Shown here: positions 71 through 25,518 of the stretch, piece by piece | How positions within the stretch are numbered: the first letter of the stretch is position 1 | Layout: every line of letters starts with the position of its first letter | The notes under the pieces: model-generated | The model's input: the letters and a program-made list of their open reading frames with translations, nothing else | Databases searched by the model: none | What the model was told of the DNA's origin: nothing | Program-made: the position numbers and the translations under genes | DNA from: Antedon mediterranea | Taxonomy: Eukaryota; Animalia; Echinodermata | Direction: 5' to 3' | Length of the DNA: 64,000 nt | Assembly (NCBI RefSeq): GCF_964355755.1 | Contig: NC_092680.1 | Span: forward strand, 1,798,001 to 1,862,000

Positions 71-3000
71 TTCATGTTGGGTCCGTCTCCGCTTCTAACT
101 AGTACCTTTAATGCGTTTTCGCTGTGCTTTGACAGACGAAATCCTTTGCGTGCCAACTCGATAACCGGTTCAAACAGTCTCTTCCAGGAAAGTTTGCCAT
201 ACTTCTGGTGAGCTTCCCACATCCCTTTTAATTCTCCAGGCGTCGCAATGGCTAACCCACCTACGGAATATAAGTTAAACCAAGTTCACAATGTGTGTCG
301 AGAAAGGTTGAATTACATGCTTTACTTTCATGAAGCGTGGATTCCACTTGTGATTATTCGATACAGCACTTTTATTTGCGTCAATACGTACGTCGCTGCG
401 TTGCGTTCTAGTGGGAACCACACTTAAAGCTTGGTTTCCACTATGACGCAACGCAAGGACGTAAACGCAACGCAAACGTGTTGACAATGACAAGCGACAG
501 TCGAATAATCCATCGCTTGAGATTGGTCAAATCCCTTACGTTGCGTTACGTCCTTGCGATGCGTTTCTAGTGGGAACCAAGCTTTAACCAACCAAGAGAT
601 GACTGACCACGTCCTCTGTCCCGAGACACAACTTGACGGATCATACAAATGGTTCTATGGCGTGGCGAGAACTTGTCAGACTGTACTGATAATGTAATGA
701 GGAAGGGCACGTCATACTGTACACTAGGCCTACCTATATATTACGTACGGTAGGCCTACTCTTAGTAGGCCTACAAGGCACCTCCAACAAAGAGCATATC
801 GTTTCTACGGTCTAGTACGAGTTAATAAGCCTATACTTCTTAAGGGTTTTTCACACCTGTTCCGGCACGGCGAAACGTACATCAATGTTTCGTTTTCACG
901 ACGCTCCACGCCGCTATGCACTAATCGATATGCGTGTAGCCGCGTGAAGCCGCGTGAAAACGAAACATTAACGTTCAATTTGATTTTCCGGCGCCGGATT
1001 GGAACCGTGCCGGAACACAGGTGTGAAAAACCCTTTATACGAATAATGTTATCGCCATAATTATGATCTTACCAATCTTGATCGTATCAGGATGTGCATT
1101 GAACATGTCTTGTGTAGTAGCTGCAGGTGAAGTTTCTCTCGCATTTATGAACTCAACTTTCTTTGCACTCCTATCATAAATCAGTAAAAACGCGCCGCCT
1201 CCAATTCCAGATGATTGGCCGTGGACTAATCCTATGCACAGCAATGACGTTATTGCAGAATCCACTGCAGAACCACCTTCCTCTAGTATAGAGCTATGTT
1301 GTGAAAAAAGGGTAAAAAAAGAGAAAGAGTGAATGAATTTCACTCAATATAGGAGTGAGAAAAGAGTGAAATCAACTCTTTTTCTAGATTGACTACCAAT
1401 CCGCAATTAAAAGAGTTATCATTCAATCTCTAAAAGCGTGAATTTTTCAGTATAGAGATTATAGGATGTTGTATCAGTGTCTGAAAGCACATTTCGCAGA
1501 AGTTGGCATCATTGTGAACGTCCCAACAAACTCTGTAAGAAGTTTGGTAGCCACCAAGATCCCATAGGGTACTCTAAAGTGGCGAAATTAGTTACGATGT
1601 TGATAGTGTTGACAGAGCTTTACGCAATAAAAAAACGCCAGCGGCGCTTAGCAAAATAAATAAAGTTACAATAGTGGATAACATTCGTTTTTGTAGATTA
1701 CCTTCCCATTTGTGAACACTCAGCAATATCGGTAGCAACTGCAGCCTTGCTGAACTGACGACGGGGTTGTGGATCGTCGTCGTCGTCATGTCGGTCGATC
1801 AGCGTGACGCACAACACGACGGCAAAGATGATCAGGCATAGTAAAATAATACAAATGATAGCAGTAATCTTTCGTGACTTGTCACGCTCTCTGAAAAATA
1901 AATGAAACCACAGGATGAGATCTACTGTATTATTAGCAGGGGCGTAACGCAGATGCCTGATGCCCCTGGTTTAGGAAGTGGCCCTCCAACGCTGGAGGCT
2001 TCGGGCCTGTTTTTTCCCTCTGCTCAGGAGCACTGGGGCCATGGGTTTAGCCAGTGAGCGCTCATAGACATTACGTCACTGATTATTAGACGATATTGTC
2101 ACGATTTCAGTTTAATATTTTCGACGATATATTTCGTTCGAAGAATCTTATCGGGGCATCAGTCCATGCGACAATTTCATCTTCAAGATCAAAACTGAAT
2201 CATCACATATCGCTCTCTGAAAAACAAACGAGATAACACCTCTGATAAGACCTCTGTATTATTGGACGATGCATTTTAATCGAATCGCGCTTTTACAGTA
2301 GTATAATTTTTAGACGATGGATTTCAATCGACGAATTCTTATTCGGGGCATTGTAAGATCAAAGGTAGGCCTACTGTAAGATCAAAGGTAGGCCTACTGT
2401 AAGATCAAAGGTAGGCCTACTGTAAGATCAAAGGTAGGCCTACTATAAGATCAAAACCGAAATGAAATCGTTAAATAAAGCCCTCGGAAAAAAAGTAAAG
2501 AGTTCTTTGGTTGATGGATAAATTATGTACATATTTTATTGATGATTGGTAATATTAGGAGAAACAGCAGATTTATTGAAGATGCAGTGGCCTTGACGTA
2601 TGGTAATATATCATGATGCATTTGGTCAATAAGCCGGGTAGGTCGGTACGCTACTGGTAGGTACCGTACGCTACTGGTAGGTACAGTAGGTACTATAGGC
2701 TTCTGTTGGGCATTCAATGCAATTTCATTAGTCAATGAATAAACTTGTTTTCTTTTTAGAGTGTTATAAAAAACAGAATTTTTAGTAGAAAGATGAAGGC
2801 ATTCCAACTTACTGTAAGTATATAATGTAATCAAATCTTATTATTCAATACAATTCTTATATAATTTTTCCAACTACGGCACTGATTAAGGATGGAAAGT
2901 AATAAAATCAGAATTATAATGTGTAAAGGGTCTTTCACACCTGTTCCTACACCAGCAAATCCAATCGAACGTCAATGTTTCGTTTGTACGCGGCTACGCA

Positions 3001-6000
3001 CATATTTATTGGCGCATAGCTGCGTGAAGCGTCGTAAAAACGAAACATTGGCGTTCGGTTCGCCGGACCGGAACCGTGCCGGAACAGGTGTGAAAGGCCC
3101 TTAAGCCAAAATTATTTTATTTCATTTTTACATGATTTAGACCTGCTGGTAAAATTAGACTTAAAAGATCGAAAGTACAAAGCTATAAGGCCTACACCAA
3201 AAAAACAACGTATTGAGCCAAACGGCTGTCCAGTAAGTTTTTTCTGGATAAAAGGGTCTTTCACACCTGTTCCGGCACGGTTCCGACGATTCGAACATCA
3301 ATGTTTCGTTTTCACGACGCTTCACGCGGCTATCTATATGCGCTAATCGATATGCGCGTAGCCGCGTGAAAACAGAACGTTCGATTGGATTTGCCGGTGC
3401 CGGACCGGAAACGTGCCGGAACAGGTGTGAACAACCCTTAATACAGTATATACTGTATACTACTCTTTTGTTTAAACACGTCCGGCCTTATGAGTAATGA
3501 ATATAAGCAATATTTACAAAAATAGGTTTCTTATTGACATAAATAAAACCATCAGATAACCCTGTTGCAAAACAAAATTATAATTATGTTTATTTTTAAT
3601 TTTAGTTGCAAGTCATAAAAAAGAACTGTCATCTATGTAAACAGGTAATTTACATTCTTATTATAAGGTGACCGATGATACAATAACATATTTATTTACA
3701 TATACAATGTGGAGCGATGTTACAATACGCTACACTAATGTCTACAAACGATTTAATGTACATATTAATTAATTGAGCAATTTTTTGCTTTGTTTTTAAT
3801 TTGTTTATTTTTAATTTTGTTATTTATTTATTTTTTATTTAGGCCTAATGATGTGTAATGATTGTATTTGCTCTTTGTGTACCGCCAAACCAAACCAGGC
3901 GTTTGTTGTCGGCAGGATTAATGACTTATGATTTCAATTGGACACTAGGCCTATAATAGGTTTATTCTTGGATCGATTAGGCCTAATTACATCAGTGAAT
4001 AATAATAACTTAATACCTGCACATTGTAGCTACTATTATTAGAACAAATTATGAAATTCACGTTTTTTGTGATTTAAAAATCAATTACTTAGCTATTAGG
4101 CCTACTTGTGATTTCAATTCTGAACACTATATAGGGATTAATTAATTTATGTTTTGTGTGATTTAAAAATCAATTATGTAGCTATTAAAGTATTTAGTTT
4201 CTCATATTTCCCAGCTGACTTTGACTAGATAGGTTTCCAGGGTACACGTCATGTTTGTCCCTAATGTGTGGCATGACAAATGCAAAACAACTAAATAACG
4301 GGAAAAAAAATTAATGTAAATATTCTATTTGTAAAAACTATCAATTGAATTGAATGAAAAATTGCATACACAAATAATCAATACAAGGCCTAATTGAATT
4401 AACTATTAAAGCACATCACCTGTTGTTTTCCACGGGGAACCCTTTCACGGAACTACATCATAATATATCATGATACATTTGGTCAATAAGCCGGGTAGGT
4501 ACCGTACGCTACTGGTAGGTACCGTACGCTACTGGTAGGTACCGTACGCTACTGGTAGGTACAGTAGGTACTAAGCTTCTGTTGGGCATTCAATGCGATT
4601 TCATTAGTCAATGAATAAACTTGTTTTCTTTTTAGAGTGTTATAAAAAACAGAATTTTTAGTAGAAAGATGAAGGCATTCCAACTTACTGTAAGTATATA
4701 ATGTAATCAAATCTTATTATTCAATACAATTCTTATATAATTTTTCCAACTACGGCACTGATTTAAGGGTCTTTCACACCTGTTCCGGCACGGTTCCGAT
4801 CCGGCGCCGAAAAATTCAATCGAACGTCAATGTTTCGTTTTCACGCGGCTACGCGCAAATCGATTGGTGCATAGCCGCGTGGGGCGTCGTGAAAACGAAA
4901 CATTGATGTTCGATTCGCCGGACCGGAATCGTGCCGGAACAGGTGTGAAAGACCCTTAAGGATGGAAAGTAATAAAATCAGAATTATAATCTGTAAAGGG
5001 TCTTTCCCACCTGTTCCGACACCAGCAAATCCAATCGAACGTCAATGTTTCGTTTGTACGCGGCTACGCACATATTTATTGGCGCATAGCTGCGTGAAGC
5101 GTCGTAAAAACGAAACATTGGCGTTCGGTTCGCCGGACCGGAACAGGTGTGAAAGGCCCTTAAGCCAAGGTTATTTATTTCATTTTTACATGATTTAGAC
5201 CTGCTGGTAAAATTAGACTTAAAAGATCGAAAGTACAAGGCTATAAGGCCTACACAAAAAAAAAAACAACGTATTGAGCCAAACGGCTGTCCAGTAAGTT
5301 TTTTCTGGATAAAAGGGTCTTTCACACCACCTGTTCCGGCGCGGTTCCGACGATTCGAACATCAATGTTTCGTTTTCACGACGCTTCATGCGGCTATCTA
5401 TATGCGCTAATCGATATGCGCGTAGCCGCGTGAAAACAAAACGTTCGATTGGATTTGCCGGTGCCGGACCGGAACCGTGCCGGAACAGGTGTGAACAACC
5501 CTTAATACAGTATATACTGTATACTACTCTTTTGTTTAAACACGTCCGGCCTTATGAGTAATGAATATAAGCAATATTTACAAAAATAGGTTTCTTATTG
5601 ACATAAATAAAACCATCAGATAACCCTGTTGCAAAACAAAATTATAATTATGTTTATTTTTAATTTTAGTTGCAAGTCATAAAAAAGAACTGTCATCTAT
5701 GTAAACAGGTAATTTACATTCTTATTATAAGGTGACCGATGATACAATAACATATTTATTTACATATACATTGTGGAGCGATGTTACAATACGCTACACT
5801 ACGTCTACAAACGAATTAATGCAAATATTAATTAATTGAGCAGTATTTTGCTTTGTTTTTAATTTGTTTATTTTTAATTTTGTTATTTATTTATTTTTTA
5901 TTTAATGCTGTGTAATGATTGTATTTGCTCTTTGTGTACCGCCAAACCAAACCAGGCGTTTGTTGTCGGCAGGATTAATGACTTATAATTTCAATTGGAC

Positions 6001-6516
6001 ACTAGGCCTATAGGTTTATTCTTGGATCGATTAGGCCTAATTACATCAGTGAATGATAATAACCTAATACCTGCACATTGTAGCTACTATTATTAGAACA
6101 AATTCATGTTTTTTTGTGATTTAAAAATCAATTACTTAGCTATTACTTGTGATTTCAATTTTGAACACTATATAGGGATTGATTAATGTTTTGTGTGGTT
6201 TAAAAATCAATTAGGTAGCTATTAAAGTATTTAGTTTCTCATATTTCCCAGCTGACTTTGACTAGATAGGTTTCCAGGGTACACATGTTTGTCCCTAATG
6301 TGTTGAATGACGAATACAAAACAACTAAATAATGGGAAAAAAAAATTAATGTAAATATTCTATTTGTAAAAACTATCAATTGAATTGAATGAAAAATTGC
6401 ATACACAAATAATCAATACACGGCCTAATTGAATTAACTAAAAGCACATCACCTGTTGTTTTCCACGGGGAACTCATTCAAGGAACTTACACTGTAGACA
6501 CCTCTAAATGTATCAT
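71..6516 (-). CDS. GGT: Gamma-glutamyltranspeptidase / glutathione hydrolase family paralog A (5' part only; the gene continues off the left edge)
   Basis: Exons read on the minus strand: 1702-1890 (ERDKSRK, TM helix [43 protein letters not shown]), 1073-1293 (GGSAVDSAI...SSGIGGGAF...INARETSP) and 71-260 ([26 protein letters not shown]). GT-AG boundaries and phases 2/1/2 are consistent. The first coding exon 6491-6516 (MIHLEVSTV, phase-compatible GTAAGT donor) is tentative. Confidence 0.9.
333..584. mobile_element. MITE family C (TIR AGC(T/G)TGGTTCCCACTAG), two adjacent copies, PIF/Harbinger-like
   Basis: Same TIR and internal CGTTGCGTT motifs recur at ~9965-10052, 10349-10602, 12690-12795, 20499-20624, 20960-21145, 21498-21647, 39457-39675 and 50190-50313. 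Flanks are TAA/TTA-like. Confidence 0.75.
843..1034. mobile_element. MITE family B (PIF/Harbinger-like)
   Basis: TIR AGGGT(C/T)TTTCACACCTGTTCCGGCACGG at both ends, with a TTA target duplication on both sides. Further copies at 2927-3101, 3253-3438, 4766-4956, 4997-5160 and 5314-5502. Confidence 0.85.
1937..2081. mobile_element. hAT-type MITE
   Basis: Imperfect TIR CAGGGGCGTAACG / CATTACGTCACTG and a perfect 8-bp TSD ATTATTAG (1929-1936 and 2082-2089). 8-bp TSDs with CAG termini are typical of hAT elements. Confidence 0.8.
2352..2455. repeat. 23-bp minisatellite (TGTAAGATCAAAGGTAGGCCTAC), about 4.5 copies
   Basis: Tandem copies seen directly. Confidence 0.9.
2604..6473. repeat. Tandem segmental duplication (~1.85-2.0 kb unit): 2604-4440 and 4461-6473
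   Basis: Both copies start TAATATATCATGAT and end CCACGGGGAAC, and are near-identical along their length. The duplicate MESNKIRII ORFs come from this. Copy 2 has one extra MITE. Confidence 0.92.
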
Positions 6517-8576: not shown

Positions 8577-11500
8577 ATGATCATGATATTTTTACTGTGT
8601 ATCATGATGTTTGTTTTTATGATAACATTGAACAAGGTACACAGTAGGCCAGCTAAAGGTGTTGAAAAGCGACAATTTGGCAAGGCTGCAGTTGCTACCG
8701 ACATTCCGGAATGTTCTGAACTAGCTACGTAAGTTTTTCACAGTTAATATTTTATTCGTCGAAAAGTTAAGGCTACATATATCTAATATAAAGATGTCAT
8801 TTTAGCATATTCTCACTCCTTGTTATTATTTATTGGTAACCAAATAAATATTACACTGTATTAACGGAAAGAGTAGAATTCTGTATATCTATTTACTTTC
8901 GAATATGATTTGTCTTAAGTTACAGAGAAGGGCGTCCTCTATATCGTCACACAATTTGTACACTTCCACACAGCTCCATACAAAATTTCTCATGAAACCA
9001 ACTTTATCCGAGTAAATAAGTCAATGAAAACTATGACAAAATAAGTCTGATATATATTTTTGTATTATGACGTCACAGGTCGATACTAAAAGAAGGAGGT
9101 TCTGCTGTTGACGCGGCAATAACGTCAATTCTGTACATCGGTTTAGTAAACGGTCAGACGTCCGGTATCGGCGGGGGTTCCTTTATGCTCCTTTATGACA
9201 GAAAATCCAAAAATGCGGAATACATCGATGCTCGAGTCAGCGCACCAGCAGCTACCACCCGAGATATGTATAACCACAATCATATTTCTAATAAGTACGG
9301 TAAGAAAAAATGTCATTTCTTATTTAATCATAAAACATAAATATTTCTTCACTTTGGTGGAGCTGTAGCTCAATCATGCCAACAAATGGACACCAATTTC
9401 TATTAACTATTCTTTCTCTATAGGTGCGTTAGCCATAGCGACACCTGGAGAGGTTAAGGGAATGTGGGAAGCTCACCAGAAGTATGGCAAACTTTCTTGG
9501 AAGAGACTGTTTGAACCTGTTATCGAGTTGGCACGCAGAGGATTCAAAGTTACAAATCACGGGGCAATGAGCCTTAAACTTCTTGTTGAAATGGCAGGAG
9601 AAGGACCGCATATGAAATAAGTTTATATTTTGTGTTCCTTCACTTTAGATTTAATTTACTTTATTAATATATGTATTACTTTAATGCATTTAAATACTGT
9701 TGCGTATTGTCGTGTTTCCGTATAATATAATTTTTAACTTTTATACAATCGGAATGTTCAGATAGCAAGTATATTTTTAGAACACTTTTATTAACATTTT
9801 ATTATAGCATAATTTTTTTCTATTTATTTTTCTAAATTTGTTAAATCTCGGTTTTATTGTATCGTCCTAGTTGACAGGGGCTGGTCAAGCACATCACAAG
9901 ATGACAGTGTTATATACTTTTGCTTTTCCGCTACTCCCCTGTTATACTTATATATAGTATTATACTTGCGTCGTCGGTTCCCACTTGTGATTACACAATA
10001 CAGCACTCTTTGCGTCAATACGTCGCTGCGTTGCGTTCTAGTAGGAACCATGTTTTAGGTATTATGTTACTTTCATTTGTATTTAAGGCTTGGAAAGATT
10101 TATACTTCAAAAACAACGGAGCCCGTCCTAAAGAAGAAGGAGACATTGTAATACGTAGCAACTATGCCGACACGCTGCAACGAATTGCTGACAATGGCTG
10201 GACTGAATTCTATAATGGAACAACAGCTGATATGATTATTGAAGATATGAAACTATACAGTGAGTAAAAATATAAATCTTTATTTTCACAATGGAACATC
10301 ACGATTTCGTAGGCCATCACATGACGTCATGGTCTTAACAGCTAATAAAGCGTGGTTCCCACTAGCGACGCAACCCACGCAACCTACGCAACGTAGGAAA
10401 ATGCCCTTCTAATAATTGTGTTTGCCCCGCCTCTCCTGCGTGAAATCAAACCTGCGATGTTTGCAGCACTGTTGGATCGTCGGTTCCCACTTGTGATTAC
10501 GCAATACAACACTTTGCGTCGATACGTCGTAGCGTTGCGTTACGTTGCGTCGCTAGTGAGAACCACGCTTTGCTGCGTTGCGTTCCAGTAGGAACCATGC
10601 TTTATGAAGGAGAGAAACTACAGGTCTAATAATTATGCTAAAATACAAATTATCATTAATTGCAACAATTCTATATCACCTCTTTATACATATACATATG
10701 TTTTAAATATGTAGGCTATGGGGTATTATGGGGTAATGTTTATTGCAACCTTATTTCATTCACAACAGATGGTATCTTAACGAAAGCTGACTTACAGAAC
10801 TACAACGTACGATGGTCTGACGTAATAACGACACCATTCTTGGGTAATACTATATATTCACCCAGTCTACCGTCTGGCGGACCAATCTACCAATTTATTA
10901 TAAATGTAATGAAAGGTATGTTTTTGTGTAGTGACGTCACTAGAAATGAAACGCAACATCTTTACTGTCTTAGCTCTATTATTACGCACATAATAAGGTT
11001 TATCGCCAATCATTTCCGCGAGGAACGTCATTGCACAATGCATGATGGGAAGGGTTTGAGAGCAAACGTCACGCAGCGTACGTACAAACAACACGCGTCG
11101 TGACGTTTGCTCCCAACCCTTCCCATCATTCGTTGCGCACGCTATTTGCGATAATATTTATATTAGATCATTTTAACATAACTGCCATAATATTTTTATT
11201 AATACATTTACTTTAGGATTTGATTTTGATTTATCAACTGACGAAGCCAAAGTTAGGACTTTCCATCGTTTTATTGAAACTTGCAAACTTGCATTTGGTT
11301 TGAAATTGCGTCTTGGAGACGTGGACACAGCGGATGTACGTCAGGTAGGTGAGATAGTACATGACTGAAACATCATGACATGAGCTAATACCTAAATCTT
11401 AAATAATGAAATATAAAGAGACAACCATTATTGTTATTATCAACCCAGTATTTTTCTAATCTTATTTTCCATTTAAGGTATTGAATCAGTTAGCGTCTAA

Positions 11501-14500
11501 GGATTTTGCCAAAGAAATTCAAGATAAAATTAACAGTGAACTGGAATACCCTAAAATTGAATTTGCCACTAAGAACCAAAATACTAACGATGTAGGCAAT
11601 GCTGGAAGTACGAGTCACGTGAGCATTTTAGCTGAAAATGGAGATGCAGTTTCTGTAACGACTTCTGTTAACTTTTAGTAAGTTAAAACAAACTGATTAT
11701 GAAACGCTACTTCTTTATCTTAAGTTTAATTAAGGTACACCATACGTAAGTACGGAAGCTTCTAAGTGCCATCCACTTGGCGACTTGTCAAGATATTATC
11801 TTGTGTCAAGTCGTTATGACTATTATGTCGACATAGTGACCGTCGTCGAGGCAAGATATCGTACATTATCTTGCCAAGTAGCCAAGTGGATGGCACTTAG
11901 AAGCTTCCGTAGCTTCCCTATGTAAGTCTGTGTAAATATGTTTTTGTATATTTTTACTTTTAGTTATGGCTGCAAAATTATGTCCGCTACGTCAGGCATC
12001 ATATATAACAGTATGATGAGTAATTTTACTATTCCTAACATGCCAACCAATGGGGGCAAAGCAATCGCCGAAGCCAACTATCCAGCGCCAAACAAACGCC
12101 CGCTATCGACAATGTGTGGAAGCTTCATTCTTGACAAAAATGATGACGTCAGATTTGTTATTGGGTCGTCTGGTGGAAATCAAATAATTACAGCAAATGC
12201 ATGGGTTTGTATATTGTTGTCTGCAATTCGATCTGCAATGCGATCACTTGTTCTTTATTGAGGCCGTGCTCTAATTTTAAAAGGAGTTCGTAGGGGCAAA
12301 CTCGTTTTATAATGCTTCATGGCCAACATAATGCATTTCCTAAACAGTACGTCTTGTTGACTGGGTCTACTTAAACCATCAACAAGACTGTTTATTGCTA
12401 TATTGTAGGCCTATTGTTTGCTGAGTAAAGTCTACTGCGCAAAAGTCCTTTACAATTACACTATTATAGTCATAGAATATAATGTAGTTGTGTTTGCTTG
12501 GCAAATATTTTGTAGGCGTATGGGTTAAATTACAAATAACACCTACCCCAAAACCCACTCCGAGACTGGCCTAAGGGAAGACACTGATCTGAAACTTATG
12601 TTTTACTTTAGTTGCATAAAATAGTTGTAACAAAATAAGCTCTTCGTACAATCGTACGTAGACCACCAATCACAAGTTCGGATGATCCATCGCGTCGTGA
12701 TTGGTCAAATCTTTTACGCTTGGTTCCCATTAGCGACGCAACAAAACGCAACGCAGCGACTAACGTCCTTGCATTGCGACAAAGTGGGAACATTTTCTTT
12801 TTAAATACTAACTAACCATGGATTTGTATCACAATGTTTTTAGGTAACACTCGTTACATTAGCAACCGATACCTCTTTAATGCAAGCTATCGAATGGCAT
12901 AGAATTCACACTGACTATGAAGAAGAAGGGGTTAGCTACGAGGACGGAGTGCCACAGGTAAAAAAAAAGAAATTTTGTTTCCCCGGCCGCGATATTTCTT
13001 TTCGTACATATATGTTAGTGACCCCATATGTGAAAGATAGCCAAACTACTTATAACTAATCCTAACACTCTAAATAATCTCTATCTTACTATAAAGTAAA
13101 AAAAAGTTGCTCGTGGGATTCGAACCCCATACTCCGACATGTAAAGTCCATAGTCTAATCCACTCAACTACACAGCCGGACGGCTCGACGGAAAGAGTTT
13201 CCATTAGCTCAATTTTTTCATCACACCTTCTGGATATGACTGAACATTCATGTTTATTTTGTGATGTTTCATGAGGAGTCCCCAACTTATGTACGAAAAG
13301 AAATATCGCTGCCCGGCCTGTGCCACACTTGACTTGAATGTTCTTTCTATAATTGAGCTTTTATTACTCTATTACTTTATAACTTTCGGAAACGAAATTA
13401 TACTCGTCACCTGGCAATATAAAAAGGTGCTTAGATCAACAACAACAAACAAAACGTATAATGTCATTAAACAGCATGACATTTTTAAGCTCTTACGGTA
13501 AAACATTTGTTTTGGAAAAGAAAAGAGAGAAAACAACAATTAAGAATTTATATCAGAATACCTTCCTGTTAAAAGAATGCTTCACAAAACTAAATCTAAT
13601 GCATATAATGTCACTAAGCCAATAATGTCGATCCAATAGGACATAAACTCTTTAAATAATCATGGTATTCTGTGTCTAGCTTAATTTTCAACTTTATGCC
13701 TACGAAATATTGTTTATCGCTGTCGAATCAGGGAATCAGGGAACTCTTCCCTGGTCGAATATAGTTCCACAACAATTACCTGTTAATAACATTCCTTTCG
13801 CCCGCCGTTTCTATCTTTACATCAGTGGTGTCCATTCTTGCCTCCTGTACATGGATTCCAACTGTTAAATGTCTGAGACCTGGATGATGTGCAGTGTACA
13901 GAATGTCAAATCAAGGCAAACAGAATTGACCTATGTGTATTTTGTTTAACAATAGGTGAATTCAATCACTTTCACTGTTGATCATAAAGGCATTATACTT
14001 ATCCGTGAAAAAAGGCATACTTAAAGGATAAATATAGGCCTACACAACAAAATCATTGAAGCAAAAACTTTTTCAAATCAGTAATGCCTTAATAAAATAA
14101 TTTATATTATTATTTTGATCTAGACTGTAATAACAGGACTATTGGAACTTGGTCATAATATTAAACCGATTGACAAGAGATCTTTTGCTGTAGTACAGGC
14201 AATATTAAAAGATAAGTCGGGTATAGATGCGTATTCCGGACATAAACTCTTTAAATAATCATGGTATTCTGTGTCTAGCTTAATTTTCAACTTTATGCCT
14301 ACGAAATATTGTTTATCGCTGTCGAATCAGGGAATCAGGGAACTCTTCCCTGGTCGAATATAGTTCCACAACAATTACCTGTTAATAACATTCCTTTCGC
14401 CCGCCGTTTCTATCTTTACATCAGTGGTGTCCAAAACATTGAAGCAAAAACTTTTTCAAATCAGTAATGCCTTAATAAAATAATTTATATTATTATTTTG

Positions 14501-14656
14501 ATCTAGACTGTAATAACAGGACTATTGGAACTTGGTCATAATATTAAACCGATTGACAAGAGATCTTTTGCTGTAGTACAGGCAATATTAAAAGATAAGT
14601 CGGGTATAGATGCGTATTCCGATTCAAGAAAACTTGGAAAACCGGCTGGATACTGA
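8577..14656 (+). CDS. GGT: Gamma-glutamyltranspeptidase family paralog B (10 coding exons; atypical active site)
   Basis: Exons 8577-8728, 9079-9299, 9424-9616, 10087-10259, 10769-10915, 11217-11344, 11478-11677, 11964-12204, 12844-12957 and 14507-14656 (truncated alternative copy at 14124-14258). Motifs: [30 protein letters not shown], the nucleophile GS|TSHVSI, SVTTSVN, KRPLSTM, GSSGG, and C-terminal DSRKLGKPAGY*. All introns are GT-AG except intron 3 (AT...AA, see findings). Confidence 0.9.
11000..11154. repeat. Fold-back / small MITE-like inverted repeat
   Basis: ATGATGGGAAGGGTTTGAGAGCAAACGTCACG (from 11042) pairs with CGTGACGTTTGCTCCCAACCCTTCCCATCAT (to 11129). Outer arms TTATCGCCAAT / ATTTGCGATAA. 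Confidence 0.65.
11751..11911. mobile_element. MITE-like element with a 31-bp perfect inverted repeat
   Basis: TACGGAAGCTTCTAAGTGCCATCCACTTGGC ... GCCAAGTGGATGGCACTTAGAAGCTTCCGTA. No clear TSD. Confidence 0.7.
12983..13316. mobile_element. TIR element carrying an internal tRNA-like sequence
   Basis: TIRs CCGGCCGCGATATTTCTTTTCGTACATA / TATGTACGAAAAGAAATATCGCTGCCCGG, with imperfect extension to ~55 bp. Confidence 0.75.
13106..13177 (-). pseudogene. tRNA-derived pseudogene / Pol III cassette (possible Val-TAC origin)
   Basis: Minus strand reads GGCTGTGTAGTTGAGTGGATTAGACTATGGACTTTACATGTCGGAGTATGGGGTTCGAATCCCACGAGCAAC followed by T8. It has an A-box, a B-box GGTTCGAATCC and a Pol III terminator. 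The acceptor stem pairs poorly. Confidence 0.6.
13639..14621 (+). repeat. Tandem duplication (~600 bp) covering the GGT-B last intron end and last exon
   Basis: GGACATAAACTCTTTAAATAATCATGG starts at both 13639 and 14238. Copy 2 lacks ~215 bp of intron. Copy 1 of the exon is cut after DAYS. Confidence 0.92.
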
Positions 14657-17220
14657 ACTTTAAACACACGTGAAACCAACGCGCACGTCCAACCAACGCG
14701 CGTGCACGTCAAGCCAACGCGCGCACACGGTTGCGTACTTCAACGTGCTTGCCATGCATTATATCTAAAAAAAATTATTTAAAAAAAGTAGTAGTAGTTT
14801 CGTAGTTTTTTTACGCAATTTGAATTTGGTCATTTCAATAGGCCTACTGGTTTTCATAATTTTATGAGTTTTAAAACATTCCTTATTTATAAAAGTTGTT
14901 TTAATTTAATTTATTGCAATTTTCTTTTGTGCGTAGTAACAAAAGTGAGTGAGTAAAGTATTAAGTTATTAAATAGTATTTTATTATTGTTATAGTATAT
15001 TTATATTATATTTTTCGTCAATTACAATAACGTAAAATAATTACCTTGAGAAATCGTAGAAGTAACCAAATATATGAATATAAAGTATAAAGAATAGATA
15101 GAATTTATTATATAATTATGATAATGTGATCAACCAATGTATATAATATTCAATTATTGCAATATCTATTTAGAAATACATTTGAATTATGATGCCATAC
15201 GTTATAGTATAATATTATAAATGATTAAGGATAAAAGTTGCTGCATAAAGATTATTTCTAATTTATAATAAATTATTTGTAATTGTAATATTGAAACTAA
15301 ATTATTTACCTTGCTTATTACGATCAAGTCATCGACTTATAGATTAACCTAAATTACCTTAAATGTGTCGTAACGATCTTTAAATATTAAAAAAATATAA
15401 TAAAAAGGATGTGAAAAAATAAGCACATGTTGTTTTAATGTTCTCATGTGTCCATCTATGCAACAATAATTTTTTTTTTCAATAAATTTTAATATCTAAA
15501 AAATAAGATAGAAACTAGTAGTGGTTCAACCATAATTTACATTCGGACAAGATTTGTAATTAAGAAAACAAATCATTTTGTATAGGCTTATAGAGAAAAC
15601 AATTTATATTATAAAAAAAAACAAGATATATATTCCATGAACCATAAATTAACTTTTATAGAGAAAATGGAAATCAAGGTTTAATTTCATTTTCACTAAA
15701 AACAAAACAACATTAAAAACAAAGCTTAGATTTGTATTATAAGAAAGACTTTTTTTCGGAAAGGATAGTGTTTTGAAACAGCATAGGCCATATAAGTTAC
15801 TACAGGACATCTTTTAAAAATGTTTTTAATTTTTTTTTATAAAAATAAATCAACATCAGCATCAAGAATTTGTATTCACAGAATAGGTAGCCGTGTATTA
15901 TAGATTGATTATCCTGTACATGTCAATAGACCTGTATAATGGAACAGGCGTAAAAATTGTGCCCTCTTTAGTTTGTTATTTCGGCCAACCCCCTGTATAT
16001 TATAAACAGCTTGCTTAGCATGATTTGATTAACCTCGACACCTGCGCAACTACAGTATAGACTAAGTCTCGACTAGGTTACCACTCAATCTAATGTTAAG
16101 TATAATCGAATTACAATAGAGTAAAACAAGTGTATATATTGATTTGTTTTATTGTTTTGCAATTTTGCCGTATTTTAAAGTTCCAAATAAGTGATTATTT
16201 TGTTGCCATCAGCTGTAAATTAGTCCAAATCAAGGATGTACAAGGACCAGCGAAAGCGTACGAAAAACGTGAGGGAAACCGCCAGGTGGGACAGAACAAT
16301 TACTAATCTGTACTGTTGTATCTTATGGTATATAATCACACTGTAAAAACTATTACATCTATTCGTTGAGAGTGTTGATAGGCTTACCTAAGCACTGTAC
16401 CGTAGTGCTATGTTTGCCACGAGGAGAATTTCCTCTTTCTACGAGCATGTACGCAAGTGCGTCTATGGTTTTAGATTAAGAGTTGTGAATAGTGAAAATG
16501 ATCTGGTTAGGTGTACTATGAACTATTTGTTACGATATTCAATCTCTACACTAAGTGGGAAAAAATCCTATATTAAGTTTAATTTTCCGGTTTAGTATTA
16601 TTTGTTGTTGTACAGTATATGTGGAATATTTATTCTGAAATAAAGTGATCACATCAAATCAAATAACTATATACCGAAAAGAGTCCTAACTACCAGTACT
16701 ATTGTTAAAAAAGCATTATTACAAAATAATGTATTATTTATTTATTTATATAATTTATAAATATTTATTCTATTTTACGGATCCTTAGTGTCCCAAGTTT
16801 ATATGTATATAATTCTATATAGTCATAGATATTCGTCCGACGCAACAACAATTAGTTTCTGACAGCTTCAGTAGTTCTCACAATATACAATATTGTGTTT
16901 AAAAAACTGATACACAAATCACAGGGATAAACACAGCACTATTTTATGTGTATTTTTCCTGATGTCGCGTGGACATGTTGATCTATTTATACATCCATGT
17001 GTTGACAATGAATTTGACCAAATACATGAATTTAATGAATATATTGGTAGCAGCATTTTAAATCTGGATCCCGTTAAATCAGGATTCTTAGAGACAATCA
17101 ATACCGCCGAGGTGGGTATAGTAGTGAAGTGCTCAGAGTTTCGGCTGTTTTTTTCGTTTTCTCCAATCGTTATTTCATTTTTTGTTAAGAGGAGAAGAGA
17201 AGAAAGATAACGGGCGGATC

Positions 17221-20200
17221 ATGGCGGTTGTGAAGATAGTTCTGCTGAGTATTGCAGTGTTTGTGTTGGTGGTTACGTTCTCTATAGCAAATCGTGAGAA
17301 TGCGACTGTAACCCGCCGCCGTCAGTTTAGCAAAGCTGCTGTGGCCACTGATGTGCCTGAATGTTCTGAAATGGGAAAGTATGGTGTATTTTCATTTGTT
17401 TAAAATTCTCGTATTAACCATCGTTATAAGAAGTTGTGCAGCCTTTATTCAAAGAAAACATAAATATAAGGGTTTTTTTTTATCCGCGGCAGATCCATTT
17501 TACTTGAAGGCGGTACCGCTGTTGATGCCGCAATCACATCGATGTTATGTATTGGACTGGTGAACGGCGAGTCGTCTGGAATTAGTGGCGGCTTTTTTAT
17601 GATGATGTACGATACAAAAGCTAAAAAGGCAGAGTTTCTCGACGCTAGGAACACTGCACCTGCAGCTACAAATGTGAATATGTTTAACTCTAAACCACAC
17701 ACCATGATATACGGTAAGACTCTTTCAAACAGACCTAACATCGGCTGCTGTTTTATGAAAGATGTATGTAAATATATTGTTGCTTTACTGTAATATCGTT
17801 ACTTATAACAGAATAGCCGATGTAATAACAGATAATATAACAGATAATTCGTGTGTATTCTTTAGGTGCGTTGGCTATAGCGACACCTGGAGAGGTTAAG
17901 GGAATGTGGGTAGCTCACCAGAAGTATGGCAAACTTCCTTGGAAGAGACTGTTTGCACCTGTTATCGAGTTGGCACGCAGAGGAGTCGAACTGACCATTC
18001 ACGGAGCAACAAGCATTGGTGATATTCTACAGAATTATGGCAAAGGACCTCATATGAAATAAGTTACATTGACTGTGTTACCTAAATACGCACTTAACAT
18101 CAGATGTATTGTCCCTTTGTCAAATTCCAAAAAAATAAAAATTAAAAGATTTCGAAAAAAGTGGGTAATTTTGAACTATCATAATAGTTATTAACTTTCA
18201 CCAAAAATTAGTCAAAAAAAAAATCATTTAACTGAAATACAGACGTTTTTTGGTTCAAAAAATAACTTTGACTTCCTGTCAAAGTTTTCGATCAAAACAT
18301 ATCTCATAATGCAATGCGCTTGTTTGGCTACTCTGTATGCATAATCATAAATCTTCCTCGCGATCTGTGTGAAAACACTTTCTCAACCGTGACAAGTTGT
18401 AAACAATCCTAATTAGCATCATGCATAATGCATATTCATGGTTTGAAATCTTTGTTTACTTTCGCTCGCGACTATTTTCCAGACGAAATGTAATACAATT
18501 AATTTAGCTGTTAATTACGTAAAATTGTTGTTTTTGGCTTGAATTTTCGACTTAAAGTGAATAACTTTAATATTACTTTGATATGGCCAATTAAAATTTA
18601 GTATATTTTGACCTTAATTTGTGTGTGTTTCAAGGGACAATACATCTTTAAGTAAACACATCATAAGTGGTATTTATATTCGTAGGTTAATGTGTTTAAG
18701 TATATACCTTTTGGAAGCTGTTCTCCTATCAGGTAGTATAGTTATGTTGATTTAATTTACACTAAATCAATTTATTTATTTATTAAGGCTTGGAGGGAGT
18801 TATACTTTAAAGATAACGGAACCCGTCCTAAAGAAGCGGGTGACATCATATTACGTAGCGAATACGCCGACACGCTGCAACGAATTGCTAACAACGGCTG
18901 GACTGAATTCTATATTGGAACTACAGCTGATATGATTATTGAAGATATGAAAACATATAGTGAGTTTATAGGTCATTTTGAAAACGAGTTCGAGTAAAAT
19001 ACTTTAAGATATATTAAATCGTGCCTCTCAAGTAAGGAGTAATAAATTGTTTTTTGTCTTTGGTTCAATGAAGACGCGAAATTTGCACGCGCGATTTACA
19101 CGCGCGTTCAAACTTTGATGACAAGATACAGTATTTGCAAAGGCGTGTCAAGAGTACTCAACTACTGGAAAAAGTTTTAAAAGTGTTTAATTATTATTAA
19201 TTAAATTGTATTATGGAAGTTAAGATTTATGATTTATTTTATGAGTTTGTTTTCTTCAGACGGAATTTTAACAAAAGCGGACTTAAGTAACTATGACGTA
19301 AGATGGTCTGATGGAGTAAAGTCCTCATTTATGAACTACACGGTATGTTCTCCAGGTTCACCGAGTGGAGGGCTGGCCTACCAGTTTTTTCTAAATGTAT
19401 GGAAAGGTACAGTTGGTAGATAATTATACACTCAATTAATACTACTACAAATACTACTTTTGTAAAGCTCTGTCTACACTATCAAACGAGTTTGACAAAT
19501 AAAAGTGTGATGTGCCCAAATATGGTAGTAATGACATATGACATAATGTCTATATATATATGAGCACATCACATTTTTTGTCGCATAAAGTTTGATAGTG
19601 TAACGCATCTATTGCTCGCGGATGGTGTCTGCATAAAATTACGTCGATCATGACTTGTTTTTATGATTAGGCTATGAAATTGATCTGAAAACTACTGCAG
19701 ACAAAGTGCGAACGTTCCACCGTTTTCTAGAGACGTGTAAGTTTGCGAGTGGTCAGTTTTCCATCATGGGTGACGTCGATAATCCTGAGGTCCGTCAGGT
19801 AAGAATATCCTGGGGTTTCAGTTGGTGAATACGGTAAGATTCTAATTTTGTAAAAATATCACGGCCGTGTTTTATTACTTTACTTAGTTTATTTGCCAGA
19901 TAGTCTGATGATTTTCCCGCCTCGGCTGCTTTGCTTATCTCGGATTGCTTTTCTCTAGTCCTGTCTGTTTTCTGCTATTCTCCGAACCGTTTCTGTATCT
20001 GTTATGCTATTAATCCTAGGCGGTAGTGCAGTTGATGATTGTTTATGAAGAGTGATCAGGTCGTTCGGATAGAGTTACCGGTAGCGTGGACCGTGGCCGT
20101 GTTTTATTGATAATATTAAAAGCGAACTGTGTATCCGCCCGATTTAAACACCAGCTTTTGTTCGGGGTTTATATTATGATCTTCTGTGACACAACGTGTA

Positions 20201-23200
20201 ACATGTTTATACTTTTAATGTTGTCTTTACTATCGTCCTATCAACATTTTGTACATTAAGGTGATGGAAAACTTGGCATCTGAAGACTTTGCGTCAAATG
20301 TACGCTATACGATAAAAGACGATCGGCTCACTTACACCAATTTAAGCTATTATAGTTCTGGAATTTTTGACGAAACTGAAAAAAAAGGAAGCACTAGTCA
20401 CGTGAGCGTCTTAGATGAGAATGGAAACGCTGTATCTGTGACGACGACTATAAACTATTAGTAAGTTACAAACACAAAATGGTTGTAGATTAAATTAAAA
20501 CGTGGTTCCCAGTAGAGACGCGCAACGCAAGCGAGTTGACCAATGACAAGCCACTGTTCGAATAATCAATCGCTTGTGATTGGTCAAATCACTTACGTTG
20601 CGTTACTAGTGGGAACCAAGCTTTACTTTATCGTTTATTTAGTTTCGGCTGCAAAATAATGTCAACAAAATCCGGAATAATATACAACAACCTGATGACA
20701 AGTTTTACTAGGCCTAATTCAGAAAAATCGTACCAGAAGAAAGGATTTAACTACCCTGGCCCAAATAAGCGGCCTAAGTCGGGGATAAGCGGTAGTATCT
20801 TCCTCGATAAACACGGTGACGTCAGATTTGTGGTGGGAAGTTCTGGAGGAAATACAATTGTACCTGCAAATGCATGGGTAGGTTTAGGTAAAAACAAAAG
20901 TACGACGAGGGTTGGTGCGAGAACCTCGCAACATAATTTACATAACAATGCCATAATAAAGCTTGGTTCTCACTAGCGACGCAACGTAAAAAAATACCCT
21001 TCCAATCATTGTGTTTGCACCCGCCTGAGTAAATTCAAACCTACGTTCGCAACAATGTTGCGTCGTCGGTTCCCACTTGTGATTACGTAATACAACACTT
21101 TGCGTCGATACGTCGCTGAGTTGCGTTCTAGTGGGAACCGCGCTTAAGCGAGAATTTATTTATTTTATGTCTTTAGGCAATGTGGCCAAGGATTACCCAT
21201 AGTGAATTAATCACTGTCCTATCAGATAGGTGGTAATCCTCCTGATACAGGGGCTATTGTGTGAACCAGTTCACCGGGGTAACCCCCCCCCCCCCCACAA
21301 GGTAATTAAATGGAACAAAATAAATCCTTCTATCGCAATGGATTAATGAAAAATAAACGTTATAGTGGCAGTGGTATGAACATACCGTAATGTGAGCAGT
21401 TGCTGTTTTGAAATTCAAATTGACAAGAGAAAAAGAGAAACCTTTTCATGGTCTGACATACACGGCATTGAGCCCATGATATCCAGTGCAACAAATAAGC
21501 TTGGTTCCCACTAGCGACGCCCCCGCCTTCGTGAAATCAAACCTGCGATGTTTGCAGCACTGTTGCCTCGTCGGTTCCCACTTGTGATTACGCAATACAT
21601 CACTTTGCGTCAATACGTCGCTGCGTTGCGTTCTAGTTGGAACCAACATGTGCTGTTTAGGCCACCGAGTTCAAATGACGATTGGCTCACTAATCAATTC
21701 CACGATGTCGTTGATTTTATCCTATCTATTTTACATAAGTACTGTGGTATAATTTTAACTGGTGATTTTAATTATGATTACGGTGTCAATAGTCCCTTAG
21801 TTTATAAGAAATTTAAAGAAATTATTGCTCCACTTGATACTATATAATTTGTTGATTTTTATACTCGTGTTTCTAACACCAAAAGTAGCATTATTGATCT
21901 GGTCTTGTGCAATAACCCTGACATTGTATGTAATTTCAGAAGTCATCCCGGTCTCAGTACAAGTGACCACCTTGGGGTTTATTTTAATATTAACGCTAGA
22001 CGCAGTAAAGTTAAACCTGTAGATAGATATTATTGTCAATATAGTAAATGTGACCATGACGATCTTTTTACAACGTTGGGGGCGGTTCCTTGGGGTCTGT
22101 GCCTGGAACAATCAGACTGTGAGGAAATGTGGGAAAATTTTAAAGACCTCTTTCTCGCCATTATCAACGATTGTATCCCTAAAGTCAAAAGTAAAAAGAG
22201 AAACAGGCCAGCTTGGATAACTCAAGAAATGGTTACCATGGCTCGTAAAAAGAAACGAATGCTAAAAGAGGCTCATCGTCATCCTCATAACCCAAGTAAG
22301 ATGGACAATTATAGAAAGTTTAGTAATAAATTAAGAAACCTAACAAAAAAAGCTCATTTACAATATATTAGGAAATTAAGTGTCGCCTGTGTAAATGTTA
22401 TGTTAAGACACGGCAGTAAGACTGGACAAGTCAAAAACTTTGTTTTTAACGGTATACCCTTGGTTTCTGATATCGATGCGGTAAATGCATTTTCCACATT
22501 CTAATTGCGTCAAACTTTAACGAACCTAATCGTAATTTCAATGTTAACCATGAGATCTGTAATTGTGTTCACCCAGATATTGTTCCCCTTAATAACATTA
22601 ATATTAGTGAAAAAACTATTTTCGAGGCTCTATTGTCCTTGAAACCCAACAAATCCTCTGGACCTGACGGGATTACACCTAAAATGTTATCCATGTCAGC
22701 TCCAATTATTGCCCCAGTGTTGTGCAAAATGTTTAACAAGTTCTTAACGGATGGCTTTGTACCAAAAGATTGGAAACTCGCGAATGTCACTCCTATTTTT
22801 AAGTCGGGTAATCGTAACGAAGTTAATAATTATCGACCCATATTGCTATGTTCTATTATAGGTAAGGTTTTTGAACGTATTATAGCAGATAACATTCTTT
22901 TTTATCTTCAATTTTTTGGATTTATAAGTCCCACGCAACACGGGTTTTATCCAGGTAGATCGTGTATTACACAGGCCTCAGCGTTATATCATGATTGGTC
23001 ACAAACAATGGATGTCAGACAACCTCCTGTAATTGATGCAATATTCCTTGATTGGGAGAAGGCCTTTGACCGTGTTCCCCATGATTTAGTAATCAAGAAA
23101 CTGCACAACATGGGAGTATGTGGATCTCTCCTAAAGTGTCTTCACTCCTTTCTCAGTGACAGATTCCAACGTGTTGTTCTTAATAAGGAGCATTCTGATT

Positions 23201-24922
23201 GGGATAGAGTGGGCTCGGGTGTTCCTCAGGGATCAGTGTTAGGCCCGCTTCTATTCAATCTCTTTGTTTATGACCTACCTCTAAATACCTCTTCTGTTAT
23301 GAAGCAGTATGCAGATGATACAGTAATTTATAAACCTGTATTCAGTCGTCATGATGCACTTACCTTACAACAGGATCTTTGTAAAATTTCCAAATGGTGT
23401 GAGGATAATAAAATGAAATTAAATGCAAAGAAGTGTAAAGTCATGCACATAACTAGGAAACGTAATTATATCACTCATTTTATTTATACAATCGAATCCA
23501 ATCCCCTTGAAGCTGTTAATTCACATAAATATCTTGGTATTAACTTCTCACGTGATTTAACATGGTCTGCTCACGTTAATGATGTACGTATCGATGAAAT
23601 CTATGAGAATGCTTGGGTTTATCAAACGGTTTGTAGGTTTCAATGACACCGAAATTTTACTACGACTTTTTAATGCACTATGTCGACCTGTTATTGAATA
23701 TGGTGCTCCTGTGTGGGATCCACATCAAAAACAACATAATATAGCTATTAACAAGTCATTAAGACGGGTTACTAAATTGTGTGTTGAAGGCGATTTCACT
23801 GACAGGCTTAAGATACTAAATTTACCAGATATGGTTCAAAGAATGAAATTTCATAGTATAATTTTTGTAGTTAAGTGTTTGCATAAGTTAATTGATTTTG
23901 ATATATTTGAATACCTTACAATTAATTCTCGGTATCCAGAGTCCCTCACCTTTAAACACATGTATGCTAGAACTAATGCATTTAAATACTCCCTGTTTGT
24001 TAATTTCCCTCGAATATGGGAATGTATCCCGCATGAAGTTCGTAACAAAGTCCTGTTTAACTTTGGTGGGTTTAGAAGGGACTTGAAAAAATGTATTACT
24101 GATATCGAATTCATCTAGACTTTCTCTGTGTTTTTATGTCTATTGCGTTTTTCGTACTATTAGTTGGGAAAGCCACTCGACAGTGCGGTTCTTTTGAACT
24201 GATCTACTTTTGGTTACCCGCAGGTGCTGATAGTGTACTTTTGTTCTGTTTTATTGAATGATGCCGTACCTTGTTTTTGATTTTTGTATGTTACCTGGAA
24301 ATTGAATAAAAAAAAAATAAAAAAAAATAGAACACTCTTTATTGACATTTTAAATGTAATGTTTGTTTCAAATATTGTTTGTAGCTAGATATAGTCTGGG
24401 ACAGATACGGCACTTTCTTTACAGATGTTGTTTTGTTTTTAGCGATTCTACCGTGCTACACCTTTCATTATGTTTTCAAACCCGTCTTTCACAGGCAACG
24501 CTGTTAGTTCTTTCTTCAAATTATACGTTAAAAAAAGCCGTGGAATGGCGTAGGATATTCAATCCACTGTTTCCAAATGAAGGCATATATGAAGAAGGTT
24601 TTCCAAAAGTAAGTGGATGTTGATTGCTAGCATACCACCCACCGTTACCACCCACCGTAAATTACGAATAATACGAGGTCAATTTGTAATTGAAGCTAAT
24701 ATTTTGAGTTTAATATTTTTATTTTGTAAATTAGTTTTTGAACATGATAACTTACTATTTTGTTATTTATAGGAAGTTTTATCAGGCTTGGAGAAACTCG
24801 GTCACGTTGTAACACAACTGCCATCGTATAAGTTCGCGGTTACCCAAGCTATATTAAAGGATGACAATGGTATAGATGCGTACTCGGACTCGAGAAAACA
24901 GGGGCAAGCCGCAGGATATTGA
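17221..24922 (+). CDS. GGT: Gamma-glutamyltranspeptidase family paralog C (10+ coding exons; atypical active site)
   Basis: Exons 17221-17378 (may extend to an acceptor at 17189/17190, implying an upstream exon), 17493-17713, 17866-18058, 18787-18959, 19260-19406, 19671-19798, 20261-20460, 20643-20877, 24495-24608 and 24773-24922. Exon lengths 221/193/173/147/128/200/114 are identical to GGT-B. Motifs GS|[20 protein letters not shown] and [11 protein letters not shown]. Intron 3 is AT...AA. Confidence 0.9.
18102..18647. mobile_element. Non-autonomous Kolobok-like DNA transposon (family D), inverted relative to the 62588 copy
   Basis: TIR AGATGTATTGTCCC / GGGACAATACATCT with TTAA at 18648-18651. 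The internal sequence is the reverse complement of 62588-63130. Confidence 0.75.
21650..24327 (+). mobile_element. 5'-truncated, decayed CR1/L2-group LINE (APE endonuclease + reverse transcriptase)
   Basis: Endonuclease motifs FRPP, GDFN, IDLVL and SDH. RT motifs [48 protein letters not shown] and [11 protein letters not shown]. In-frame TAA at 21845-21847 and frameshifts near 22500-22630 and 23590. A-rich tail at 24305-24327. Confidence 0.92.
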
Positions 24923-25518
24923 TGATCAATAGGCCTACCTATTATTTATAAATATTGATTGATGATTGGTTGTTACCCTACCAAATCTAATTAGATAATC
25001 ATAGCACTTCTTTATCAATTTCAAAAAATTAATAATATGTAATGCAAATATCGACCCTCTTCTATTTTGATAAAGCGCGCATAATAAATCTTAGTATTAA
25101 AAGATATATTAACAAACAAGAATATAGGCCTAATCTGTGCTTATTTACATTTTTTTACATTTTACAGGTTGCAAACCATAGTCATAATTTGAACCGGGAA
25201 ACCGTTTAATAATATTAAAAATGAATTTTGATGGTGACAAAACAGTATTGATGAGAGACCATCAATCCTTTGAAATCGTTAATAAAGAAAATCGTATTAA
25301 AAACAGTCTATTTTTATTCGCATTGTGACTTCTTTAAAAGTATTGTTGAATATCAGACCCCTGGAATAAATGAAAAGATGAGACATTCATGATCACTTGA
25401 ATTGTCATTATGTACTATACTTTTACTTTAGTTAAAAAATTCAAAAAGAGAGCCCTCTATTTTAGATCAGACAAAAACAAAACAAAATCTTGTTTTTTGA
25501 GTGTTGGCTCGTAAAAGT

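Follow-up and report, generated by a model that had tools for sequence, protein, structure and literature searches.

An AT-AA intron with U2-like splice signals is removed in frame from a gamma-glutamyl transpeptidase transcript of Antedon mediterranea

Intron 3 of GGT-B, a gamma-glutamyl transpeptidase gene of the feather star Antedon mediterranea (Echinodermata), begins with AT and ends with AA, and a transcript contig shows its in-frame removal. Its splice signals resemble those of U2-type introns and, judged by these signals, it is probably cut directly by the major (U2) spliceosome. The gene lies in the 64,000-nt stretch of DNA analysed here (the window; NC_092680.1, positions 1,798,001 to 1,862,000 of the forward strand), together with a tandem paralog, GGT-C, whose homologous intron carries the same two ends.

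In the major spliceosome, the first and last bases of the intron pair as G·G or, rarely, as A·C. To our knowledge, reports of A·A come only from mutant substrates, where it supports splicing weakly; AT-AA introns found in nature have been filed under the minor spliceosome. Yeast G1A mutants, studied by Chanfreau in 1994, reportedly activate UAC/ and UAA/ acceptors. As described in PMC11585973, the 3′ splice site is positioned by a non-Watson-Crick pair between the two terminal bases of the intron. According to PMC8283771, which cites Scadden and Smith (1995), A·C can substitute for G·G in this pair and A·A weakly supports splicing; the same source describes A·C and A·A as fitting the geometry inferred from mutants, not the geometry seen by cryo-EM.

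Results

GGT-B (8577..14658, plus strand, with a putative start codon at 8577) is a 10-exon gene of the gamma-glutamyl transpeptidase family. Exon 3 (9424..9616, plus strand) is an open frame homologous to exon 3 of GGT-A and GGT-C and is covered in part by a spliced contig. It ends in …CAT ATG AA at 9616 and is followed by ATAAGT from 9617, so the coordinates given in the first-pass annotation are correct in the sequence, and read-through of this donor stops at once, at the TAA in 9618-9620, as that annotation had stated. Intron 3 (9617..10086, plus strand; 470 nt, phase 2), defined by the sequence and the spliced contig, runs ATAAGT…TTTAA. Exon 4 (10087..10259, plus strand), an open frame with 100% identity to RefSeq XP_071965543.1 over 57 aa, then begins G GCT TGG. 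The 5′ splice site of the intron, ATAAGTTT (9617..9624, plus strand), agrees with the U2 consensus at +2..+6 and has A at +1. Its 3′ tract (10059..10087, plus strand) is AG-free and T-rich and contains the 3′ splice site, TAA; an AAG lying one base further on (AG at 10086-10087) goes unused. At the homologous point, minus-strand GGT-A was correctly described as reading ATG AA/GTAAGT (exon 3 at 260-71, donor at 70-65); it serves as a GT control whose acceptor lies beyond the window. The other introns of GGT-B and GGT-C, eight in each gene, are GT-AG without exception (16/16).

Cutting after 10086 yields ATG AAG GCT TGG and keeps the GGT-B frame open to its natural stop. With this AT-AA cut there is no internal stop between 8637 and the final stop, whereas use of the AG at 10086-10087 breaks the frame and leads to a stop at codon 189. 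Both outcomes had been anticipated from the sequence. The further claim that the frame needs an AA acceptor does not hold, because a TA-AG cut (9618-10087) is likewise in frame and likewise encodes Lys (AAA versus AAG). The two cuts differ only in this Lys codon, and an RNA contig is therefore needed to decide between them.

The AT…AA ends of GGT-B intron 3 are confirmed in genomic DNA and are not a sequencing slip. A contig spanning the donor (9467 to 9799 or 9801) is found in 3 of 3 DNA runs, all from one sample that may be the assembly's own, and these contigs contain no other letters. At the acceptor, the contigs of the three runs contain 0, 0 and 2 other letters, none of them listed at the acceptor itself.

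Transcript evidence comes from X1, whose sample and study differ from those of the DNA runs. X1 is a presumed RNA run, none of the 5 runs found being recorded as RNA. Three canonical introns, namely introns 7 and 8 of GGT-B (11677→11964 and 12203→12843) and intron 4 of GGT-C (18959→19260), are removed in its contigs, so X1 behaves as RNA. In one X1 contig (record 2; depth 5.4), 298 nt long, 9484-9614 is followed directly by 10085-10251, and the only letter that departs from GGT-B lies in the earlier piece. We assign the contig to GGT-B on account of this single difference, whereas GGT-B and GGT-C differ at 50/298 positions. The predicted junction ATG AAG GCT TGG is present in the contig, which corresponds to a cut at 9616/10087. 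Equivalent registers of this cut would have AT-AA, AA-TA or AA-TT ends, and only AT-AA fits the position of the GT donor in the paralog. RNA support for the junction consists of one bridging contig at low depth from one sample; contigs lose rare forms, and decay would hide a frameshifted product. Listed X1 cover is absent at GGT-B exons 1 and 5, and such holes carry no evidence. GGT-B intron 3 is thus confirmed as a real AT-AA intron, removed in frame in a transcript contig.

Other cuts were considered and rejected. An AT-AG cut of GGT-B intron 3 is frameshifting and unlike the X1 contig. The frame is kept by 61/288 GC/GT-AG pairs in GGT-B and by 63/324 in GGT-C; all of these delete exon sequence or add intron sequence, and none fits the contig.

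GGT-C, a paralog absent from the first-pass annotation, contains a second AT-AA intron. The gene (17221..24923, plus strand) has 10 exons and encodes 572 aa, its frame is open with an AT-AA cut, and X1 record 7 is spliced at its intron 4. Intron 3 (18059-18786, plus strand; 728 nt, phase 2) has AT…AA ends in the sequence, and its junction reads ATG AA/ATAAGTTAC … TTATTAA/G GCT TGG. The interiors of intron 3 in the two genes share a best match of 12 nt (E 0.03). On the donor side of GGT-C intron 3, an X1 contig (record 2 over GGT-C) stops at 18056 and has 30 more letters that are unlisted, against a bridging threshold of 31 letters; on the acceptor side, the long contig of X1 record 7 starts at 18785. 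An unspliced X1 contig also covers this acceptor (18699-18814), at a depth of 2.7 versus 5.1 for the spliced form; canonical intron 6 of GGT-B has an unspliced X1 contig too. Position 18785 is where the spliced and the unspliced GGT-C forms converge, as expected for AT-AA (a TA-AG cut would place the point at 18788), and from these contig ends, with no full bridge, we infer that GGT-C intron 3 is spliced as AT-AA. In the one DNA run compared with GGT-C (X5), the acceptor is spanned by 18629-19450 with 0 other letters, and the hole that lies over the donor carries no evidence. A homologous intron with the same two non-canonical ends and a spliced contig that uses them is more than chance would be expected to give.

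The animal that supplied the RNA could have had a canonical GT…AG allele, with the AT…AA alleles of the window poorly spliced or dead. X1 does come from a sample other than that of the DNA runs and has allelic differences, and X1 provides no unspliced cover of either donor or of the GGT-B acceptor. Such an allele is nevertheless very unlikely, given that the same two changes are found in two paralogs with both frames intact, that X1 itself carries the AA acceptor in the unspliced GGT-C contig, and that the DNA contigs over the GGT-B ends have no second letter there.

The RefSeq models of GGT-A, GGT-B and GGT-C match PF01019 at 409-491 bits (cut-off 27). A TSH motif is found in all three; its Thr opens the small subunit and is the GGT nucleophile. 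Both the GGT-B and GGT-C frames are intact, and whole-gene dN/dS between the two is 0.18, a rough value with dS near saturation. These data agree with the earlier view that GGT-B is not a pseudogene, and they support an intact gene under purifying selection.

The first-pass annotation had predicted that gene predictors would mis-model an AT-AA junction, and both RefSeq models concerned, those of GGT-B and GGT-C, are wrong there (2/2). XP_071964321.1 (GGT-A) reads GPNMKAW across the junction. XP_071965543.1 (GGT-B) inserts the intron-derived QNHVLGIMLLSFVF; the one cut that yields this model exactly is 9610/10045, with TA…AG ends, and GC-AG cuts at 9607 come within one residue of it. XP_071965545.1 (GGT-C) loses 15 codons, which equals a GC-AG cut at 18039/18813. 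Since intron residues are added in one model and 15 codons lost in the other, such introns are invisible to annotation-based surveys.

The avoidance of the AT-AA junction by the RefSeq models, together with the low RNA depth, is what might be expected if the junction were an artefact (an assembly error or a template switch of reverse transcriptase), if the gene were dead, or if the true cut were TA-AG. We find this scarcely credible. The DNA contigs confirm the GGT-B ends, the junction repeat is just 2 nt, the cut sits at the intron position of the paralog, and a dN/dS of 0.18 speaks against a dead gene. The TA-AG cut of GGT-B intron 3 was rejected because it predicts AAA and the X1 contig has AAG.

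Further features of these genes were observed. The RefSeq GGT-B model leaves out the end of exon 5 and the whole of exon 6 (10769-11344), which are open and homologous to GGT-C. An in-frame ATG upstream of the RefSeq start (8577-8636) would give GGT-B a hydrophobic N-terminus that is signal-anchor-like. Most of the last GGT-B exon is covered by an exact 185-nt direct duplication (14054-14238 and 14437-14621), which may be a real tandem duplication or an assembly artefact; with the truncated first copy the protein would have a different C-terminus, and the RefSeq model strings both copies together. In the small subunit (11964-12204 in GGT-B, 20643-20877 in GGT-C), the NEMDDF motif of human GGT1 is replaced by SMMSNF in GGT-B and by NLMTSF in GGT-C, and PLSSM is replaced by PLSTM and PKSGI, respectively. 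These motifs presumably form the glutamate-binding pocket, and the residues predicted at them suggest that the substrate preference of GGT-B and GGT-C may be altered with respect to human GGT1.

The splice signals of the two AT-AA introns were compared with U1 and U12 consensus motifs, scored as mismatch counts with no trained matrix. On this measure TAAGT at +2..+6 is perfect (5/5) in 2/2 AT donors versus 4/16 canonical donors of GGT-B and GGT-C, and the AT donors match U1 at 7 and 6 of 11 positions, the canonical range being 5-10. The 3′ end of the GGT-B intron has an AG-free zone of 28 nt and a pyrimidine fraction of 0.70, and for both AT-AA 3′ ends the pyrimidine content and AG-free zone fall within the values seen across the 16 canonical introns. 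An AAG acceptor is used in intron 6 of both GGT-B and GGT-C, so the skipped AG beside the TAA is a real competitor.

U12 signals are lacking at both ends of the introns. As had been claimed for GGT-B, the U12 donor is absent: ATAAGTTT, and likewise ATAAGTTA, have AGT rather than TCC at +4..+6 and do not conform to RTATCCTT, and the AT donors match the U12 donor motif at 5 and 4 of 8 positions, no closer than their canonical neighbours. A U12 branch site resembling TCCTTAAC is absent from the last 60 nt, where the best candidates have 3 mismatches in GGT-B and 2 in GGT-C, the latter overlapping the acceptor. GGT-B intron 3 ends in AA, and the nearest AC, 16 nt upstream, is unused by the contig. 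Intron 3 works like an AT-AC type II intron but does not share the AC end of that class, and it lacks both U12 signals.

The introns could still be degenerate U12-type introns, removed by a minor spliceosome that is known to accept AT-AA. PMC10639083 gives AT-AA as the most frequent non-canonical pair of ends in minor introns, Table 2 of PMC1557818 contains 8 AT-AA introns, every one U12-type, and the 'Total' sheet of the PMC4176328 supplement has 25 human ATAA rows, of which 20 are typed U12, 5 neither and 0 U2. The U12-type introns of these sources (RASGRP4, MSH3 and others) share their terminal dinucleotides with the GGT intron; unlike it, they carry an RTATCCTT donor and a U12 branch site. 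In GGT-C, moreover, the best branch-site match is the acceptor itself, and the paralog intron has a plain GTAAGT donor. Removal by the minor spliceosome is accordingly a highly improbable explanation.

A-to-I editing of one or both terminal adenosines would let the major spliceosome meet an ordinary GT-AG-like intron. Editing rescues human GT-AA and AT-AG sites, 7 of which appear in Table 2 of PMC4176328, and inosine supports the terminal pair according to PMC8283771; edited molecules are spliced away and thus hard to see. The sites rescued in this way (GT-AA in ADARB1, NRK, HOOK3 and COG8, AT-AG in C14orf37; PMC4176328) resemble the GGT intron in having a genomic A for G in a U2-like context, but there one end is altered, whereas the GGT introns carry A at either end and lack a covering duplex in the regions searched. 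Within ~1.5-kb regions, inverted repeats over the intron ends number 0/11 pairs in GGT-B and 0/22 in GGT-C. The best duplexes of the four ends within 1.5 kb have energies of -14.4 to -17.8 kcal/mol, against -12.4 to -25.2 for 32 canonical ends, and this absence of a covering duplex lowers the case for editing. Editing would also have to strike a pair of sites 470 nt apart in one intron and 728 nt apart in the other, the interiors being unrelated, and the unspliced X1 contig over the GGT-C acceptor joins the spliced path at 18785 and would hence be unedited at -1. We consider editing unlikely and favour direct cutting of the genomically encoded AT-AA ends by the major spliceosome.

Repeated DNA was observed at several points of the cluster. 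Short inverted-repeat elements of high copy number flank exon 4 of GGT-B (9780-10055 and 10346-10605); one of them stops ~30 nt short of the AA acceptor and has a copy in intron 4 of GGT-B with which it pairs. GGT-C has no comparable arrangement of flanking elements among its listed pairs. A reverse-transcriptase frame (PF00078, E 1e-33; 22471-23643) lies within GGT-C intron 8 and is likely a LINE remnant. Between GGT-A and GGT-B there is a direct duplication (~2886-4298 and 4956-6332) with 94% identity over ~1420 nt.

The two AT-AA introns likely share one origin through gene conversion. Synonymous third positions differ between GGT-B and GGT-C at 13/86 sites in exons 3-4 and at 123/219 in the other exons, and dS is 0.32 in exons 3-4 versus saturation elsewhere. 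GGT-B and GGT-C are grouped in a protein tree of exons 3-4 (73% bootstrap) and ungrouped in a tree of the remaining exons, both trees being built from 7 sequences after removal of columns gapped in GGT-A, GGT-B, GGT-C or the Anneissia japonica protein P0005. The exon 3-4 tract was thus likely copied between the paralogs, so both introns count as one origin. Two bases often survive by chance at a dS of 0.32, and their sharing by GGT-B and GGT-C is therefore weak proof of selection on the A's. The first 120 nt of exon 3 show 86-95% identity among the three paralogs (140-263, 9421-9567 and 17859-18009), compared with ~61% for the proteins overall, which suggests repeated gene conversion in the cluster. 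At the junction, the Anneissia japonica proteins P0003 and P0005 read VS[QD]AW with differing lengths, and proteins carry no intron ends; VS[QD]AW may be true exon sequence or the product of models bent round an unusual splice site. A metagenome scan for relatives returned 15 loci at 28-31% identity, none of them close.

Discussion

Splicing of the GGT introns can be accounted for by a departure from the usual terminal pair. U1 and U6 would bind the perfect TAAGT at +2..+6 despite the A at +1, and an A·A pair of the first and last intron bases would take the place of the usual G·G. After branching, a final A would be a better partner for A(+1) than a final G, so that TAA is chosen, and the frame-shifting AAG one base downstream would be passed over or its product lost to nonsense-mediated decay. 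Part of the output may be stalled or frameshifted and then degraded. That intron 3 is a natural, constitutive and unedited U2-type AT-AA intron, in which an otherwise conventional spliceosome uses TAA efficiently over an AG one base away, is a fuller claim that we advance tentatively, as it falls a little short of what we would call probable. The one locus and one RNA sample give no sign of a regulatory role for the intron.

The AT…AA ends would have arisen once, from a GT-AG intron like that of GGT-A, and the exon 3-4 tract would then have been copied between GGT-B and GGT-C. A GT-AG ancestor is suggested by the GGT-A donor and the intact GGT-A model, the acceptor of GGT-A being outside the window.

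Several known systems share some of these features. U2-dependent AT-AC type II introns, of which PMC1557818 reports 24 in five genomes, including those of human SCN4A, SCN5A and TAF2, likewise have A at +1 on a U2-type donor, no U12 signals, a pyrimidine tract and a last base altered along with the first. Unlike them, the GGT intron ends in A rather than C, which would give an A·A pair, and faces a competing canonical AG one base downstream. PMC4299874 reports that, in Aspergillus telomerase RNA, a natural AUAAGU donor is taken through the first step by the major spliceosome and its +1A blocks the second; it also reports inhibition of splicing by +1A in tests in S. pombe. The GGT intron has the same natural AUAAGU donor, which the major spliceosome uses in Aspergillus and probably also here; however, exon ligation is blocked and the cut RNA released in Aspergillus, whereas the GGT exons are joined. 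Fritillaria borealis splices introns with very diverse ends and does so without the minor spliceosome, according to PMC13326754. It resembles the GGT genes in its non-GT/AG ends, which are handled without the minor spliceosome there and presumably here as well, but 95% of its introns are non-canonical and its U2AF is duplicated, whereas all 16 neighbouring GGT introns are GT-AG (16/16).

In the literature searched, most subscription papers being outside its scope, we found no description of a U2-type AT-AA intron, and the term AT-AA is absent from the main text of PMC7072748 and PMC11347168. The end pair that occurs here with U2-like signals is listed as U12-type in the intron surveys checked, and in the tables concerned none is listed as U2.

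A working natural case of A·A would be a ready substrate for the dispute over terminal-pair geometry between mutants and cryo-EM, and the locus offers a built-in read-out (TAA versus AAG one base away) with a GT paralog as control. If the proposed reading is true, the major spliceosome would have A·A as a third natural terminal pair in addition to G·G and A·C, and the GGT intron would be the first to be seen of a hidden class of introns, annotated as false insertions, deletions or pseudogenes.
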